DNA of 64,000 bases from Candidatus Taylorbacteria bacterium RIFCSPHIGHO2_12_FULL_45_16 (GTDB taxonomy: Bacteria > Patescibacteriota > Minisyncoccia > Phycocordibacterales > PALSA-1337), in the NCBI GenBank assembly GCA_001821055.1, contig MHRT01000004.1, positions 5,548-69,547 of the forward strand, read 5' to 3'. Position 1 is the stretch's first letter. Each line of letters starts with the position of its first letter. This document shows, piece by piece, positions 2,688 to 17,130 of this stretch. The notes below the pieces were generated by a model. It worked only from the letters and a program-made list of their open reading frames with translations, ran no database searches and was not told where the DNA came from. Made by a program: the position numbers and the translations under genes.

Positions 2688-4103
2688 ATGAACCTCGGCA
2701 AGAAAACCAAGATAGTTTGTACTATCGGACCCGTAACCGAAAACCTGGAAAAAATCACCGAACTCATCGACGCCGGAATGAATGTCGCACGTCTTAATTT
2801 TTCGCATGGTGATTTTGCTGAGCACCAGAAGCGCGTTGATAATATCCGTGAAGCCATGAGAAAGACCGGTAAGACCCTGTCCATTCTCCAAGACTTGTGT
2901 GGACCGAAAATCCGCATTGGGACATTCAAGGACAAAATGATCACTCTCCATCAAGGCCAGACCTTCACTTTGACGACCGACGAAGTTGAAGGCGATGAAA
3001 ATAAAGTTCACATCAATTATCCGCAACTGCCTCAGGAAGTTAAAAAGGGAAGTATTATCATGCTTCAGGACGGTAGCAAGCGTTTGGAAGTCTTGGAAAT
3101 TAAAAGCCACGACATTATCACCAAAGTCATGATTGGAGGAAGTCTTTCCGGCCGCAAAGGTGTCAATGTGCCCGGCGCCAACTTGTCACTTTCCGCCTTG
3201 ACCGACAAAGATCGAGCCGATGTCGCGTTTGGCGTCAGAAATAGCGTTGATTTCGTAACCCTTTCTTTTGTCCGTCGCGCCTCCGACATTACTGATTTAC
3301 GCAAAATTCTTGATGACGCAAAGTCTGATGCCCACATTATCGCGAAGATAGAAACACCAGAAGCTCTAGATTGTATAGATGAAATTATTTCCGCTGCCGA
3401 CGGTATCATGATTGCCCGAGGCGATTTGGCTATTGAGATTCCAGCCGAAGAAGTTCCGTTGGTGCAGAAGCTCATCATTTCAAAATGTAACGCGGTCGGT
3501 AAACCGGTGATTACCGCCACGCAGATGCTGGAGTCAATGGTCAAGAATCCAGTCCCGACCCGAGCCGAAGTCTCCGATATTGCCAACGCCATCATCGACG
3601 GTACCGATGCCATCATGCTTTCGGAAGAGACGACACTTGGGGACTTTCCGATTGAAGCGGTCAAAGTCATGACCAAAGTCGCGGCCCGTGTGGAAAAAGA
3701 AATATACACTCGGGATACAATTGCCGGATATAGACCACCGCACGGCGTAACGGATGTAGTCTCGCAATCTGCCGTGCGTTGTGCTCACAATGTCGAAGCT
3801 GCTCTAATTGTCGCCTTGACTCGTTCAGGTCGTTCCGCCCGGATGATCGCTCGGTATCGTCCGGCGGAGCCAGTGTTGGCCCTTTCTGACAACCAAGCTC
3901 ATGCCAACAAATTGATGCTGACATTCGGTTGCTATCCGATGGTTGCGCCGACATTCAAAACGGTTGATGAGATTATGGAAATTGTGCGCAAAGTCACTCT
4001 GGATACTGGACTCGTCAAAAAAGGGGATAAAGTGGTGATAGTCGCCGGAATGCCATTTGGTACCGCGGCGGAGACGAATATGATTTTAGTGGAGACACTT
4101 TAA
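2688..4103 (+). CDS. pyk: Pyruvate kinase
   Basis: Full-length match to the PK family: 'KTKIVCTIGP', 'ARLNFSHGD', 'MIARGDLAIEIP', and a C-terminal alpha/beta domain. Length 471 aa. Confidence 0.9.
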   Translation: MNLGKKTKIVCTIGPVTENLEKITELIDAGMNVARLNFSHGDFAEHQKRVDNIREAMRKTGKTLSILQDLCGPKIRIGTFKDKMITLHQGQTFTLTTDEVEGDENKVHINYPQLPQEVKKGSIIMLQDGSKRLEVLEIKSHDIITKVMIGGSLSGRKGVNVPGANLSLSALTDKDRADVAFGVRNSVDFVTLSFVRRASDITDLRKILDDAKSDAHIIAKIETPEALDCIDEIISAADGIMIARGDLAIEIPAEEVPLVQKLIISKCNAVGKPVITATQMLESMVKNPVPTRAEVSDIANAIIDGTDAIMLSEETTLGDFPIEAVKVMTKVAARVEKEIYTRDTIAGYRPPHGVTDVVSQSAVRCAHNVEAALIVALTRSGRSARMIARYRPAEPVLALSDNQAHANKLMLTFGCYPMVAPTFKTVDEIMEIVRKVTLDTGLVKKGDKVVIVAGMPFGTAAETNMILVETL

Positions 4104-4995: not shown

Positions 4996-5346
4996 TTGCT
5001 TCTTTGCTCTTCTATCTCCATGCGAGATTATCAGCTTACTTCACCTTCTTTGGAGGGTATACTCCATCATGACTCAATCATGTATGAAGGCATTCGTCGA
5101 CCGTTCGAGTTACTGAGAGTCATGGATGGGCCCTTATCGCGAGGCGCTAACAAGCACACCCACATAGCCGAGGTTGTATATACAGAAACCGAGCGGAAAA
5201 TCATTCAAAATTACCTGCAAGATCTCAATCGTTTGTTCATGAAAAAACTTTCACACTTTATGGTAGAATCGGAGTCAAAGCCTGATGAAGGCGTCAAGCT
5301 CCAAGCAATGTTGCAGGAGATGATAAAAATCAAAAAATTGCTATAA
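4996..5346 (+). CDS. Hypothetical small protein. It abuts the murD-like gene (its stop at 5344-5346 is immediately followed by the 5348 start) and is possibly cotranscribed.
   Basis: Open frame only. No recognisable motif. The C-terminus is Lys-rich. Confidence 0.25.
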   Translation: MLLCSSISMRDYQLTSPSLEGILHHDSIMYEGIRRPFELLRVMDGPLSRGANKHTHIAEVVYTETERKIIQNYLQDLNRLFMKKLSHFMVESESKPDEGVKLQAMLQEMIKIKKLL

Positions 5347-5347
5347 T

Positions 5348-6691
5348 GTGTGCATGATTTTACGCGATTATTTCAAAGGCAAGCGGATTGCCGTTATTGG
5401 GCTGGGCTTGCATGGTGAGATGATCGAAGATGTGAAATATCTTATCAAAGCCGGCGCTTGGGTGTCCATATATGACCTAAAAAGCGAAGCGCGCCTCAAA
5501 AACCATTTGGTTTTTTTGAGGTCCGTTGGTTTGGCCAATTATGTTTGTGGTTCCATTCCGGCGGATGATTTGTTGGACATGGATCTTATTATCTTGTCGC
5601 GAGAATATCCCAAAGACTCGTCTTTTTTGAAAAGCGTCTATGCCCAAAATATCCCCGTTGAATATCAAGAAACTCTTTTCTTCAAGCTGGCTCCTCCGAT
5701 TACATTGGTTGGTGTGATGGGCATTTGCGGCAAATCAACGGTTATTTCTATCCTTACCCCTTTATTGGAAAAAGTTTGTGAAGCGTATGATACACAAGGC
5801 TTATTCGTCGTTGATTCGGAATCCGCCAACGGTGTTTTGACCCATCTCAGGAAGATCAAGAATGGGGATATCGTGATAATGCGTGTTATAGATGAAATGA
5901 TTCCCGAATTGTATGATATGCGTATTAGTCCGCATGTGGCAATATTCACGACGGTGCCGACGACGCGCGGTTCCCTAGCCTCGCCGTTCGATGTGCTTTC
6001 GTACCAGACATATAACAATTTTATCGTGGCGTCCGATGAGGTCATTGATGTGGCTCGTTCCATGCAAATCCAGCCACGCGCGAAAATGTTGCGTACCAAA
6101 GCCACTTTGATCCCCAATGAATGGGGTTTTGAAGGTCGAGGATCGCATGATCGCATGAATGCCTCCTTGGCGCTGGAGGCGGCGCGGTTATTTAAGGTTG
6201 ATGATGATGTAGCCCACCACATTTTCATTGGATGGAAGGCGCTCAAAGGTCGTTTGGAGTTGATAAAAAAGATAAAAGGCGTTGAATTTTTCAATGATAC
6301 CATGTCAATGACGCCGGATTCGACTCTGGCAGGCATTATCTCATTGTCGCAAGATCGCAATGTTATTCTCATTTTGGGCGGGGCTGATGGGGGATATGAA
6401 TATTGCGCGTTGTATAGTCAGTTGCCTCGTCATGTGCATACGATAGTCAATATTCCAGGTAGTGGTACTCTGCGTCAACGCGCGCATATGCAAGATATTG
6501 AGGGTGTTGTAGTGAAGTCAGTTCCGTCAATTGGCGAAGCGGTCAGGACGGCCTTCGAGTGCGCCAAAAAGGGGGATCGGGTCTTGTTTAGTCCCGGCTT
6601 TGACGCTGGTGGCGTTGAAGGCTCCAAAATAGATCGCGGGGAGAGATTCGTGAGAGTAGTAAGGGGGTTGTTGAGTGAGATTATCAGATAA
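5348..6691 (+). CDS. murD: Mur ligase family, MurD-like (UDP-N-acetylmuramoylalanine--D-glutamate ligase)
   Basis: N-terminal Rossmann 'KRIAVIGLGLHG' and the Mur-ligase P-loop 'GVMGICGKST'. Middle and C-terminal Mur domains are present. The start codon is GTG at 5348, with an ATG at 5354. Confidence 0.6.
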   Translation: MCMILRDYFKGKRIAVIGLGLHGEMIEDVKYLIKAGAWVSIYDLKSEARLKNHLVFLRSVGLANYVCGSIPADDLLDMDLIILSREYPKDSSFLKSVYAQNIPVEYQETLFFKLAPPITLVGVMGICGKSTVISILTPLLEKVCEAYDTQGLFVVDSESANGVLTHLRKIKNGDIVIMRVIDEMIPELYDMRISPHVAIFTTVPTTRGSLASPFDVLSYQTYNNFIVASDEVIDVARSMQIQPRAKMLRTKATLIPNEWGFEGRGSHDRMNASLALEAARLFKVDDDVAHHIFIGWKALKGRLELIKKIKGVEFFNDTMSMTPDSTLAGIISLSQDRNVILILGGADGGYEYCALYSQLPRHVHTIVNIPGSGTLRQRAHMQDIEGVVVKSVPSIGEAVRTAFECAKKGDRVLFSPGFDAGGVEGSKIDRGERFVRVVRGLLSEIIR

Positions 6692-13020: not shown

Positions 13021-13329
13021 GGATGAGGAATTGATTGTGAATTTAGAATGGGAAGGAATATAATCAGACTTGCCAAGTTGAATAAATGAATATGCCCTTA
13101 AATATAGCTCAAAATATGGAGTTTGATGAGAGTTGACAGGATAGTGTTTTGGGTGTATAACTGTGGGCAGAAAATTAGGGTCAAGAACCTTGATATGTTG
13201 TTGGTTTCGGGACCGCATCCGTGGATATTCCGTGGCTGTGTTTCCGTGACCAATGACCAATCGATAAGGCGTATCAGGCTCTTTGATAGAGGTGATATTG
13301 CTACGACCAATCTTGACACGGAATCAACT

Positions 13330-14010
13330 ATGAGAAATCCAACATTAGCACAGACGGGCGGTTTGGCCGGAAGTATTGGCGACGATCTTCGTCAGATTCA
13401 AGACCAGCTTGACGGCGAAAGAATCCAGCTGGCACTGAATAATCCGGATCACCCGTTTCGGCAAGGAGTCGTAACACTTGCACTTGCACAGTTTTTCGCC
13501 GTCACATGGACCGAGAAAGGTAGTATCATCCACGTCACCTTCATCTCCAATGGTTGGAGTGGTCCCGAGTGGAAAGAGCACTTCAAAAAGAAAGGCGTCC
13601 AGTTGTCGCCTAACGCGTTGGAAATCTTGGACTCCACGGAGTTCAAAGCTTCAAAGGCAGGAACTGTCCGGCAAGTTGCTCTCCTCAAGGGTGAACTGTT
13701 CAACGAGTCGGATCGTATTACCAGCAAAATTCGCGCCAAGGCTGCCGAACTCAAGTTGAAGACTTTGGACATGGAAGTTATTTGCCTCATCCGTGACACA
13801 TTCTCCAACGCGGAGATCAACAAAATGGGGTTTTTGTGGATCGTCGGCATGCATGACTCTGTCGAAATTGGCGGCGATTTGAGCCTTCTCACGGCGGTTG
13901 CCTACGGCGTTGTTCCGGGGCTCGAGGCGCTCTACGACCGTCCCGACTTCAGGTGGTATCGTGAGGGTGGCTTTGCCTTCGCTGTCCAGCAAGTAGAACT
14001 CAAGGCTTAG
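13330..14010 (+). CDS. DGR target (variable) protein with a C-terminal VR. An alternative in-frame start at 13123 is possible.
   Basis: The C-terminal 42 codons form the VR. The template-encoded version (..NANDDVPRLETNYDNPDNRWNRENGFAFAV..) carries the Asn (AAC)-rich signature seen in C-type-lectin-fold DGR variable regions. Confidence 0.7.
   Translation: MRNPTLAQTGGLAGSIGDDLRQIQDQLDGERIQLALNNPDHPFRQGVVTLALAQFFAVTWTEKGSIIHVTFISNGWSGPEWKEHFKKKGVQLSPNALEILDSTEFKASKAGTVRQVALLKGELFNESDRITSKIRAKAAELKLKTLDMEVICLIRDTFSNAEINKMGFLWIVGMHDSVEIGGDLSLLTAVAYGVVPGLEALYDRPDFRWYREGGFAFAVQQVELKA
13868..13994 (+). repeat. DGR variable repeat (VR)
   Basis: A 127-bp match to 14985-15111 with 19 mismatches. At every mismatch the other copy has A and this copy has G, T or C. 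Confidence 0.85.
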
Positions 14011-14187: not shown

Positions 14188-14646
14188 ATGTCACAACACA
14201 AACGTACGATACGCACATTATCACATTGTTTCTACGATATTAAGTACCACCTAGTCTGGACTCCCAAATACCGTGGCAAGGTATTGGGAGCCGACAAGGT
14301 AAAGAGTGAACTGCGACGGATCTTCGAAACCATCACCAAGTGGAAGCACTGGGAGATCATCGAACTCAACATCCAGGAAGACCACATACACCTGTGCCTC
14401 CTTGCGACACCGAGAGATTCAGTCTCTTACATCATGCAAATTCTGAAAGGGAAATCCTCCGCCTGGATGAAGAAGAAGATTAAGCGTACCCACGGACTCT
14501 ATGAAAAAGAAAGTCTCTGGGCACGAGGATATTTCGTCTCGACAATCGGCCTAGATGAGCACCTCATCCGCCGGTATGTTAAGCACCAATCCCACCACAA
14601 TGAAGTAGACCAACCATCACTGTTTGCCAAGCTGTTACCTAAGTAA
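14188..14646 (+). CDS. tnpA: IS200/IS605-family Y1 transposase TnpA
   Basis: 'YHLVWTPKYR', the HUH motif 'HIHLCLLATP', 'ILKGKSSAWM', and the catalytic-Tyr region 'WARGYFVSTIG'. Length 152 aa. Confidence 0.85.
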   Translation: MSQHKRTIRTLSHCFYDIKYHLVWTPKYRGKVLGADKVKSELRRIFETITKWKHWEIIELNIQEDHIHLCLLATPRDSVSYIMQILKGKSSAWMKKKIKRTHGLYEKESLWARGYFVSTIGLDEHLIRRYVKHQSHHNEVDQPSLFAKLLPK

Positions 14647-14984
14647 ACCACAGTCGCCCTGCCGGCACAGCCGGCAAACACAAAGCCACCAGACCTAAGT
14701 CTGGTGGTTGGTTACTGCATGAAAATGGTACAATTGTGTCGGTAGTAGGTGAATATGTACGTGACCACAGGTCACGTACCACCGAATCCAGTATCCATGC
14801 ATCGAGAATGTTCTGGATCATGATCTAGGGCAGAGTGGTGCGTGAACTCTAAAAAATGGAGATACTTGGTATAGGGTGTTAGAGCATTAGTTTGGCAGGT
14901 TATCCTACCGAATGATATGACGAAAACAAAGGTGAGCCCCGAGAGTATTCAAGGGGTAGTCGCATGGATGACATTCTATACACA

Positions 14985-15111
14985 TTGACGGCGATTTGAA
15001 CCTTCTCACGGCGAATGCCAACGACGATGTTCCGAGGCTCGAGACGAACTACGACAATCCCGACAACAGGTGGAATCGTGAGAATGGCTTTGCCTTCGCT
15101 GTCCAGCAAAT
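14985..15111 (+). repeat. DGR template repeat (TR), non-coding
   Basis: Adenine-rich copy of the VR, lying immediately 3' of avd and 427 nt upstream of the RT ATG. Confidence 0.85.
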
Positions 15112-15115
15112 CCTT

Positions 15116-15460
15116 TCATTTCTCCCCGACTTTAGTAGTCGGGGAGTTTTGTTTCTCCTGAAGATATTTTTCATTTTGACCATACCATCCACCGAGCATT
15201 TTTCCGATGTCATTTGACGGTTCAGATATCATCAGATATTTTTTGTTATCTATCGAACCTATTTCCCAGGCGACTTGCATGAGAATTTTCATCGTCTCGA
15301 GTTTGCTGATGGCCTGTCTAATCCACGGACTCTTCTTGTCTTTTGGCAGAAATGCCGCCGTAGAGACTGACTCGATGGTGTCTATAAATAGCAGATCTAT
15401 CCTAACACCCAAAGAATATTTAGATGTTTTCGGGAATAATTTTATAACATCCTGCCACAA
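15116..15460 (-). CDS. avd: Avd-like accessory variability determinant (four-helix-bundle family, TIGR02436-like). The apparent start codon is TTG.
   Basis: 'FPKTSKYSLGVRIDLLFIDTIESV' and 'SKLETMKILMQVAWEIGSIDNKKYLMISEPSNDIGKMLGG' match the conserved helices of Avd and the 23S-IVS four-helix-bundle proteins. Confidence 0.6.
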   Translation of the reverse strand: MWQDVIKLFPKTSKYSLGVRIDLLFIDTIESVSTAAFLPKDKKSPWIRQAISKLETMKILMQVAWEIGSIDNKKYLMISEPSNDIGKMLGGWYGQNEKYLQEKQNSPTTKVGEK

Positions 15461-15520
15461 TTTGTAGGCACCAATGGCCTTTGATAGAGCGGGAATTACT
15501 TTCGGTTGTTGAAATCCGTT

Positions 15521-15530
15521 GGGGGGGGGG
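15521..15530. repeat. G10 homopolymeric tract, 8 nt upstream of the RT ATG
   Basis: gggggggggg. Candidate slipped-strand phase-variation site and Shine-Dalgarno-like element. Confidence 0.9.
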
Positions 15531-15537
15531 TAGACTT

Positions 15538-16551
15538 ATGAGTATGCGACGAATCCAATGTAATCACACCTACGAGGATATCATATCTATGGAAAATCTG
15601 CTTGAAGCGTGGAAGGAGTTTGTATGCGGAAAAAGAAAGCGGAGTGACATGCAGGAATTTCAACTTAAACTTTTTGAGAATATCCACAGACTTCACTCTG
15701 ACTTAAAGGACAAGTCTTACAAACACGGCTGTTATACGCCTTTCAAAATCAACGACCCAAAGCCTCGTGATATTCACAAAGCCCTCGTGCGAGATCGGCT
15801 TCTTCATCATGCACTGTATCGGAAGTTGTATCCATTTTTTGACCGAACATTTATTTCGGATTCATATTCATGTCGGAATGACAAGGGGACGCATAGAGCC
15901 TTGGACAGGTTTGGCGATTTCGCCTATCGAGCTTCGTGGGGACATACAAAAACGGTCTGGGTTTTGAAATGCGACGTCAAGAAATTTTTCGCTTCCGTAG
16001 ATTATGAAGTTTTGTTTGGAATTCTCGAGAAATATATTCCGGATAAAGATGTTATGTGGTTGATCCGGGAAATCGTCGGTAGTTTTCATTCGACGAAAGA
16101 AGGTGTCGGATTGCCTCTGGGGAATCTAACCTCGCAATTATTTGTGAACATCTACATGAATGAGTTTGATCAGTTTGTGAAGCATAGATTAAAAGAGAAG
16201 TGGTATATTCGATATGCTGATGATTTTGTGATTCTTAACCAAGATAGAAAATGGCTTGGACATGCCCTTGCGGAAACCCATCGTTTTTTGGAGCAGAAAT
16301 TACATCTTACTCTTCATCCAAATAAAATAAGCATTAGAACTTTCGCTGGAGGAGTTGATTTTTTGGGTTGGGTTCATTTTCCTACACACCGTGTGCTACG
16401 GACGGCGACTAAAAGGAGGATGTGGAGGAATGTTGAGGTGAAGAAGATGTTGAATAACGCGGACACATTACAGTCGTCAATTCAGTCGTATATGGGGATG
16501 TTGAGTCACGGAGATGCGTATAAATTGCAGGCTGTGATAAGAATGGATTGA
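15538..16551 (+). CDS. Diversity-generating retroelement reverse transcriptase
   Basis: RT motifs 'KCDVKKFFASVD', 'GLPLGNLTSQLFVNIYMNEFD' (with the DGR-specific xGxxxSQ in place of the QG of group II and retron RTs) and 'YIRYADDFVIL'. The N-terminal 'DSYSCRNDKGTHRAL' is DGR-type. There is no maturase or endonuclease domain. Confidence 0.85.
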   Translation: MSMRRIQCNHTYEDIISMENLLEAWKEFVCGKRKRSDMQEFQLKLFENIHRLHSDLKDKSYKHGCYTPFKINDPKPRDIHKALVRDRLLHHALYRKLYPFFDRTFISDSYSCRNDKGTHRALDRFGDFAYRASWGHTKTVWVLKCDVKKFFASVDYEVLFGILEKYIPDKDVMWLIREIVGSFHSTKEGVGLPLGNLTSQLFVNIYMNEFDQFVKHRLKEKWYIRYADDFVILNQDRKWLGHALAETHRFLEQKLHLTLHPNKISIRTFAGGVDFLGWVHFPTHRVLRTATKRRMWRNVEVKKMLNNADTLQSSIQSYMGMLSHGDAYKLQAVIRMD

Positions 16552-16586
16552 ACGATCTAAGACACTGTGCTAGGATAAAATCATCT

Positions 16587-16889
16587 ATGAATACCACTCA
16601 CAAAGGTTCAATTCGATGCATTATTTTCAAGGATGGCGCTACTTGGTATGGTGTTGCGCTTGAGTTTAATATTGTGGAATCAGCCGACGATGCCGACGTA
16701 GTAAGATTTAATCTAGATGAAGCCATTCAGGGCTATGTGGAATCCCAGAAAAAACTCAAAGGTACGCGTGTCTCACCTCTCAATCAAAAACCAATGAAAG
16801 AGTATGCTGATTTGTGGAATAATCTGGTGACGGATAAAGCTATTCCGAGCCCATATAAAGTCAAATCTTTCGGTTTTACTAAAGTCTAA
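16587..16889 (+). CDS. hicB: HicB-like antitoxin (UPF0150 / RNase-H-like fold)
   Basis: 'WYGVALEFNIVESADDADVVRFNLDEAIQGYVE' matches the HicB N-domain pattern. It is followed 10 nt downstream by hicA. Confidence 0.5.
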   Translation: MNTTHKGSIRCIIFKDGATWYGVALEFNIVESADDADVVRFNLDEAIQGYVESQKKLKGTRVSPLNQKPMKEYADLWNNLVTDKAIPSPYKVKSFGFTKV

Positions 16890-16899
16890 GTTAAAAGCT

Positions 16900-17130
16900 A
16901 TGCCGAAAGGAGCATTCAACTGGACGTTCAATGATGTCGTGGCCGTGCTCAAAGAAAATGGTTTTCATTTGAATCATATCAAAGGAAGTCACTATTTTTA
17001 TGTTGGTTACATTGACGGCAAGGCTCGACAGGTCTGTGTCGCCAAACATGGCAAAATCTCATTCAAACCAAGAACTTTCAAGGGAATGATGGAGCAATCT
17101 GGGCTTTCCAGAGATAAGTGGGGATTATAA
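16900..17130 (+). CDS. hicA: HicA-like mRNA interferase toxin
   Basis: 'VLKENGFHLNHIKGSHYFY' matches the HicA/YcfA dsRBD-like 'GSH' motif. Length 76 aa. Confidence 0.6.
   Translation: MPKGAFNWTFNDVVAVLKENGFHLNHIKGSHYFYVGYIDGKARQVCVAKHGKISFKPRTFKGMMEQSGLSRDKWGL

Follow-up and report, generated by a model that had tools for sequence, protein, structure and literature searches.

A position-conserved, length-variable simple repeat between avd and reverse transcriptase genes as a probable contingency locus of a Patescibacteria diversity-generating retroelement

How does a cell stop mutating a target gene once a useful variant has arisen? This is a question of the regulation of diversity-generating retroelements (DGRs), and one to which a short run of guanines offers a testable answer. 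The run, or tract, is found in a stretch of 64,000 nucleotides (‘the window’) from Candidatus Taylorbacteria bacterium RIFCSPHIGHO2_12_FULL_45_16, i.e., positions 5,548 to 69,547 of contig MHRT01000004.1, where it separates the head-to-head genes of a DGR reverse transcriptase (RT) and its accessory protein, Avd. Where the 5' ends of avd and RT meet, here and in relatives, there is a repeat that is conserved in position, interchangeable in sequence, and polymorphic in length. The tract is probably a selectively maintained, hypermutable repeat, that is, a ‘contingency locus’, situated where the 5' control regions of the two genes overlap and tuning the production of both proteins.

The plus strand holds exactly ten consecutive G at 15521-15530, then TAGACTT, then an ATG at 15538, with the order being GAAATCCGTT-GGGGGGGGGG-TAGACTT-ATG-AGT-ATG and with the in-frame ATGs found at 15538 and 15544. 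An earlier note on this DNA, made from the sequence, had described a G10 homopolymer just upstream of the RT start and within the divergent avd/RT region. Both descriptions hold, as seven bases lie between the tract and ATG 15538, and as the bAvd match is to the minus strand and the RVT_1 match to the plus strand. That note's further remark, that a TTG start at 15481 would put the tract within a coding frame, is correct as well, since the mechanically called open reading frame (ORF) beginning with that TTG (15481..16551) runs through the tract and translates it as WGGGR. The note did not mention, however, the tract's place in the avd frame of the opposite strand, on which this proposed hypermutable element (G10, 15521..15530, plus strand) is instead C10 and reads as Pro-Pro-Pro.

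Runs such as this are rare in the surrounding DNA. Within the window the G10 is the only run of G or C of at least eight nucleotides, with three others of six or seven, and an independent-base model predicts 0.017 runs of at least ten G, such that the tract well exceeds what chance would give. Within 600 kb around 80 loci from other genomes, G/C runs of at least seven number 69 at the avd/RT junction versus seven everywhere else. At ten, the window's tract also is an uninterrupted repeat that is long enough to slip, for which a G/C run of at least seven is taken as sufficient.

Conservation was assessed across 151 related loci, with 80 from species-representative genomes (RTs 58-78% identical) and 71 being the usable ones of 80 metagenomic loci. 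RT identity over the whole of this set is about 57-78%, and roughly 600 or more further related loci are reported beyond those analysed. Sought in these orthologous DGRs, an uninterrupted G7 to G14 is present at the homologous spot in 123 of 151, ten being the modal length, with ‘homologous spot’ meaning between an Avd helix-1 motif, (I/L)LP(V/L)LxKxKxxYxxW, and the start of RT. In another 14 this place is taken by some other simple repeat, i.e., (GT)7-12, (GA)9-12, (CTGG)9-11, (TGCTGAT)n, or (GGCGGCT)n, and the junction of the P0052 lineage has (GA)7. Only in the 14 that remain is the repeat short (G5-G6), decayed (GGGAGGG), or absent. The repeat units are one, two, four, or seven nucleotides in length, and never three or six. 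The orthologous site, that is, keeps a repeat even as the sequence and indeed the unit of that repeat changes, as is expected of a contingency locus. With repetitiveness conserved rather than sequence, this argues against a ribosome-binding site, a proline linker, or a G-rich structure, and for selection on mutability itself. The simple repeat is a trait of the DGR clade with divergent avd and RT; no repeat was seen upstream of avd in three lineages of the co-directional DGR clade of the candidate phyla radiation (CPR). As a separate observation, locus L080 has a second low-complexity element at its junction, an imperfect, GCT-rich trinucleotide stretch (about 3960-3997, gctgctactgctgct) which is found beside its G11 and is read in the avd frame as a run of Ser (PPPSSSSSTSLP).

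The repeat also varies in length among very close relatives, as contingency loci do. Six independently assembled contigs share the window's RT without any difference and match the window at 99.9-100% identity across 2.3-7 kb. In the lineage which these contigs form with the window, the tract is G9 in four instances, G10 in two (one contig along with the window), and G11 in one. It is the sole indel over the sequence which they share, with the remaining differences all substitutions. More broadly, independent assemblies supplied 13 groups of near-identical contigs for comparison, and in nine of these the repeat is polymorphic. Besides the window's own lineage, these are P0006 (five G8, four G9), P0010/L002 (three G9, three G10, two G11), P0098 (one G9, one G10, three G11), L044/L138 (G13, G11), L061/L154 (G11, G8), L151/L152 (G9, G10), L018/L119 ((GT)9, (GT)8), and L137/L034/L160 ((CTGG)9, 10, and 11). 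The copy number of (GT)n and of (CTGG)n varies as well, and these changes cannot be due to error in the reading of homopolymers.

At the level of sequence the tract thus has the properties of a contingency locus, and reversible switching of expression is what these properties would predict. Slipped-strand mispairing changes the length of the tract, as is seen in the polymorphism among assemblies, and that change would alter output of RT and of Avd, the two proteins of mutagenic reverse transcription. For RT, tract length may set the spacer of a sigma-70-like promoter which gives rise to a leaderless mRNA. For Avd, it may set whether upstream starts are in frame with the conserved body of the protein. 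The DGR would then alternate by chance between an active and a silent state, with the tract probably acting as a random on/off control of mutagenesis. Quite probably the tract serves as a functional expression switch, its ON and OFF states being predicted from the sequence. Should it be such a switch, then an effect on RT transcription has about an even chance of being part of it, and an effect on Avd translation, which the former does not exclude, stands at roughly the same midpoint. Of the slipped-strand toggle which the earlier note had put forward, what survives is that a conserved, length-variable tract could toggle the DGR; what does not are the two routes which it offered, i.e., changed spacing between a Shine-Dalgarno (SD) sequence and the ATG, and frameshifting of an N-terminally extended RT. 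The note had named absence from orthologous DGRs and uniformity of length as grounds against its idea, and on both counts, with length compared between assemblies, the outcome is in favor of it.

Any such switch presupposes a DGR to be switched, and the locus is a genuine one, with a DGR-type RT, an Avd, and an adenine-biased pair consisting of a template repeat (TR) and a variable repeat (VR). The RT (15544..16551, plus strand) is matched by Pfam RVT_1 (E 2e-20) and has 100% identity to an NCBI protein from a Rifle aquifer Candidatus Taylorbacteria. It likely starts at ATG 15544, 13 nt past the tract, with ATG 15538 as the alternative; the modal start-codon position in relatives also is 13 nt after the run. 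Its homologues number in the thousands, mostly from Patescibacteria, with an adjacent avd at each locus that was examined. Avd, on the minus strand, is matched by Pfam bAvd at E 5e-9 and 37 bits, just below the 40-bit gathering score, and a single-sequence AlphaFold model predicts a helical bundle. The TR (14975..15109, plus strand) is 84% identical to the VR (13858..13992, plus strand), which is located at the C-terminal end of the target gene (about 13195-14010), and 20 of the 22 positions at which the two differ are TR adenines (A-to-N). CPR, i.e., Patescibacteria, DGRs constitute clade 2 of Roux et al. 2021 (PMC8144416), to which the window's element belongs.

As to arrangement, avd is inverted, lying between TR and RT and head to head with the latter, and in 80 of 80 genome loci it is found on the opposite strand and beside the RT start. 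Straight after the TR is a strong terminator-like hairpin with a T-run (15122..15156, plus strand; hairpin 15122-15146, ten pairs of which seven are G-C), which lies antisense to the 3' part of avd. Given such a hairpin after the TR, RT probably needs a promoter of its own. The hairpin itself could end the TR RNA or instead be a structured downstream element of the sort that DGR RNAs need. Among contigs otherwise identical to the window, substitutions cluster in the VR (13871-13883 and 13957-13958), with an A-to-C change in the TR of L086 at 15063 and a change in L082 at 14096 being further substitutions. From these VR differences among near-identical contigs it would appear that the DGR has recently been active in the population.

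How might the tract act upon Avd? The avd reading frame (15116..15535, minus strand) contains no stop between the TAA at 15536-15538 and the stop at 15116-15118, and thus runs through the C10; the first canonical start in its phase is the TTG at 15460. As position 16 of the bAvd profile aligns to residue 29 of the frame, about 15 profile positions are left lying upstream of that TTG. Starting at TTG 15460 also would remove most of the predicted helix 1 of Avd, VIPALSKAIGAYKLWQDVIKL (15437..15499, minus strand; residues 13-33 of the AlphaFold single-sequence model, predicted local distance difference test (pLDDT) score 65, a moderate confidence). The segment QQPKVIPALSKAIGAYKLW is conserved in relatives, which implies that it is translated. 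No ATG, GTG, or TTG occurs between the tract and helix 1 in the window's lineage. Candidate starts on the avd strand are found instead beyond the tract (15556..15567), i.e., TTG 15558-15556 and GTG 15567-15565, with the GTG being the antisense of a conserved RT His codon. These are in frame with avd only given a tract of G11, G8, or G14, which is why G10, the allele of the window, is predicted to lack full-length Avd.

Several observations on relatives accord with a dependence of this kind. Within the P0006 lineage, avd is called as 149 aa from the equivalent ATG for G8 alleles and as 96 aa for G9 alleles. Among 128 loci which bear a repeat, 41 lack, in the phase as assembled, any canonical start for full-length Avd. 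In the lineages where the tract is absent or decayed, on the other hand, an upstream ATG is in frame with avd in five cases out of five; for three of those five it is the antisense-His ATG, from which the frame continues across the site where the repeat used to be. Consistently, an in-frame ATG is seen for seven of 12 loci with a short repeat or none versus 30 of 128 loci with the repeat (Fisher p=0.015). All of the repeat types observed, furthermore, are free of stops in every frame of the minus strand. Alongside this it may be observed that calls for avd (149 vs 96 aa, 114 vs 98 aa) and for RT shift with tract length or with the annotation pipeline (L091-L099, L206-L210, L081-L085). With gene calls this inconsistent, public annotations of the 5' ends of avd and RT are unreliable.

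How might the tract act upon RT? Considering 54 long ORFs of the window, SD-like motifs precede 4% of first start codons versus 10% of internal control codons, while a TAnnnT box is found 5-8 nt upstream of 26% of first start codons versus 2.7% of internal ones. From these figures, leaderless mRNAs would seem to be frequent in this Taylorbacteria genome. Abutting the tract is a -10-like hexamer of this kind, TAGACT (15531..15536, plus strand), followed by 7 nt and then ATG 15544, and the -35-like hexamer is TTGAAA (15509..15514, plus strand), which lies, in antisense, inside the N-terminal coding sequence of avd. A consensus promoter scan scores this pair, TTGAAA-16 nt-TAGACT, at nine matches of 12, and ten of the 16 spacer bases are the tract. 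By allele the predicted spacer is 15 for G9, 16 for G10, and 17 for G11. With its -10 box just 7 nt ahead of ATG 15544, the RT mRNA is predicted to be leaderless. The earlier note's suggestion that tract length acts through SD-to-ATG spacing accordingly was rejected, given the 4% of first start codons with SD-like motifs against the 26% with a -10-like box, the tract's TAGACT neighbor being promoter-like rather than a ribosome-binding site.

Rejected too, as a general mechanism, was the frameshifting of an N-terminally extended RT. Homology to related RTs sets in only downstream of the tract, and since the ATGs there are available at any tract length, such an extended RT is not the ORF that is switched. 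In L023, moreover, the heptamer repeat contains TGA in all three plus-strand frames. An exception is P0009, in which an ATG just upstream of a G12 tract is in frame with RT, and where the RT as called reads MSGGGG.

Promoter-like surroundings recur among relatives. TAnnnT immediately follows the run in 35 of 70 related loci, compared with a background of 1.5%. Among 50 loci with a run and then TAnnnT, 25 have hexamers matching TTGACA at four or more of six positions with spacers of 16-19, while most other spacings from 10 through 26 are represented by zero to two loci, and a spacing of 25 by four. L022 has two additional G10 tracts, at 3404-3413 and 5253-5262, which are built as G10-TATAAT-6 nt-ATG and G10-TGATAT-6 nt-ATG, pointing to several contingency loci of the promoter type within one genome. 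Downstream of one of these extra tracts is the gene of a repeat protein with a signal peptide (secreted), and downstream of the other is avd of a second DGR, which is co-directional and whose target carries an Lcl_C-type VR. Since three co-directional lineages lack a repeat, the G10 before that second avd is not a trait of its clade.

A number of observations pull the other way, and must be set against the idea of a length-dependent switch. Four of the 13 groups of near-identical contigs are invariant in length ((GA)7 in four, G12 in five, G10 in two, and G8 in two), and all lengths are single assembly consensuses, one per sample, such that polymorphism is a comparison made between assemblies. 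On the Avd side, the frame is in phase with a canonical upstream start at 24 of 70 loci, or about the one-third that is expected by chance; an enrichment of Avd-ON phases among assembled loci thus was considered and rejected. The open antisense frame and its ATG also follow automatically from the RT His codon, and with the frame so dictated, its openness is uninformative as evidence of coding. At about half of loci, P0009 among them, the Leu of ‘LP’ is moreover encoded by a TTG, and this is a possible avd start found downstream of the tract. As a universal start for avd this TTG was rejected, being enriched (56% vs 16% background) but not universal, and being confounded by CTGGCA. On the promoter side, lengths of run and flank do not compensate for one another (Spearman -0.2, p=0.18). 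The enrichment of -35-like hexamers is confounded, too, as the antisense of avd Leu-Pro-Val codons reads CTGGCA. Arrays of 40-60 nt, i.e., (CTGG)10 and the heptamers, furthermore exceed a 17-nt spacer.

With these points weighed, the tract as switch would imply, for the window's G10 allele, Avd that is OFF or truncated, along with an RT promoter that is sub-optimal but usable, and for a G11 allele, Avd and RT that are both ON. That the two effects are combined, i.e., as a double gate, with a single repeat setting both the RT promoter spacer and the Avd frame and in this way making hypermutation phase-variable throughout the clade, is a more tentative proposition, to which somewhat less than an even chance may be given.

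Might slippage occur instead during expression? Programmed slippage by RNA polymerase or ribosomes on the C/G run would set a fixed ratio of Avd to RT rather than constitute a heritable switch. Such slippage could supply the change of frame which full-length Avd needs in the window's allele and at about one-third of loci, and runs of at least nine are sites of transcriptional slippage in insertion sequence (IS) elements and in endosymbiont genes. It is the length of the DNA itself that varies between near-identical contigs, however, and the two-, four-, and seven-nucleotide units that replace the run are not substrates for single-base RNA slippage. The loci also are found in all three phases rather than in one that is fixed. 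Programmed slippage as the explanation is for these reasons unlikely.

Improbable to a like extent is that the repeat is an unselected mutational by-product, as might be left by slippage or repair scars where transcription units collide, or made by the RT. The gene junction is indeed a very compact, head-to-head one, and the avd-ON phase is no commoner than chance predicts. A neutral run, though, would be broken by substitutions, whereas more than 80% of lineages retain an uninterrupted run despite RTs having diverged to about 60% identity, and this persistence counts against a by-product. G/C runs, too, are strongly avoided elsewhere in these genomes, the lineages which have lost the repeat all are fixed in a translatable avd phase, and three co-directional CPR DGR lineages have no such repeat at all.

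Still less probable is a fixed, sequence-specific role for the G-run, as an RT ribosome-binding site, a poly-proline linker of Avd, or a G-rich structure, with differences in length being noise or assembly error: the run does lie 7-13 nt before the RT start and could pair with the anti-SD, the avd frame always reads it as PP, PPP, or PPPP, and long homopolymers can be miscalled in Illumina assemblies, but at 14 loci (GT)n, (GA)n, (CTGG)n, or heptamers stand in its place, so that repetitiveness is kept rather than G or prolines, a proline linker would allow synonymous CCN changes and yet none interrupts the runs, gene starts of this genome nearly lack SD-like motifs, di- and tetranucleotide copy number differs between near-identical contigs, and the contigs share up to 7 kb with no second indel.

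The preferred reading, of a hypermutable repeat that switches expression, has parallels among known contingency loci. In the hifA/hifB fimbrial switch of Haemophilus influenzae, (TA)n is found in overlapping divergent promoters, inside of the spacer between -35 and -10. The DGR tract likewise is one simple repeat between divergent genes and within a predicted promoter spacer, such that slippage would alter both. It differs in being mostly a G homopolymer, in serving genes for an RT and an accessory protein rather than for surface structures, in having 5' ends so close together that the repeat also is in the frame of one of the genes, and in that its effect on expression is a predicted one. The porA and opc genes of Neisseria meningitidis have a G/C homopolymer of about 9-14 nt in the promoter spacer, giving graded or ON/OFF transcription. 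The TTGAAA-(6 nt+G10)-TAGACT of the window resembles these, except that the RT transcript is predicted to be leaderless, that the -35-like hexamer is within the coding sequence of the opposite gene, and that the host is an uncultivated CPR bacterium. From the perspective of Avd, the likeness is instead to the intragenic poly-G of Campylobacter jejuni and to tetranucleotide loci of Haemophilus and Neisseria, i.e., a length-polymorphic repeat at the 5' end of an ORF, with a unit that is not a multiple of three, and for which length would decide whether the body of Avd is in frame with a start. Unlike in those loci, the candidate upstream starts are antisense to the RT gene, and about half of relatives have an alternative TTG downstream.

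In comparison with canonical DGRs (Bordetella phage BPP-1, Legionella, Treponema), the element shares an RT, an Avd, and an adenine-specific TR/VR pair at the C-terminus of a target, but departs from them in its inverted avd, placed between TR and RT and head to head with the latter, with a simple repeat at the junction. Simple-repeat control of enzymes that generate diversity is familiar from phasevarions, with their phase-variable mod methyltransferases, and from repeat-mediated switching of mutL and mutS. Like phasevarions and reversible mutators, a repeat switch on a diversity generator would be a form of ‘second-order’ bet-hedging; unlike them, the activity under control would be retro-mutagenesis targeted to one gene rather than genome-wide methylation or mismatch repair. 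As the earlier note had supposed, a repeat switch appears to be undescribed as a means of DGR control: no simple-repeat control of any DGR was found in the literature searched (full text), outside of which is the CPR DGR survey of Paul et al. 2017. The novelty, as judged against that literature, is phase variation as applied to a diversity-generating retroelement.

The neighborhood of the DGR has other features. A gene for an IS200/IS605-type Y1 transposase (14188-14646, plus strand; Pfam Y1_Tnp, E 4e-33) lies between the target gene with its VR and the TR, and is found in every near-identical contig which covers the region. An Rfam search of 14600-15800 returned no match at gathering score. 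A weak match to the RT-7 motif at 14802-14867 (plus strand; 22.5 bits vs a gathering score of 116.8, E 0.006) probably is due to chance; it is located just upstream of the TR, the expected place for the 5' part of the DGR RNA. Following RT are a 113-aa ORF without a Pfam match and then a HicA-toxin gene (16900-17130, plus strand; Pfam E 2e-9). This region (16548-17130) is directly downstream of RT and is kept in all near-identical contigs, and it may represent a toxin-antitoxin pair.

As to what a switch of this kind would mean, cells would alternate, heritably and reversibly, between a state in which the target protein is diversified and one in which its current variant is kept fixed. This would be a previously unrecognised layer of DGR regulation, i.e., bet-hedging of the second order, and one that would apply to a large, Patescibacteria-specific clade of DGRs, in bacteria among which DGRs are especially common. 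As start calls for avd and RT vary with the length of the tract, tract phase should be considered both in CPR annotations and in surveys of DGR activity. The tract would be, that is, a contingency locus of ultra-small, uncultivated bacteria, and one which controls a generator of diversity rather than a surface antigen.

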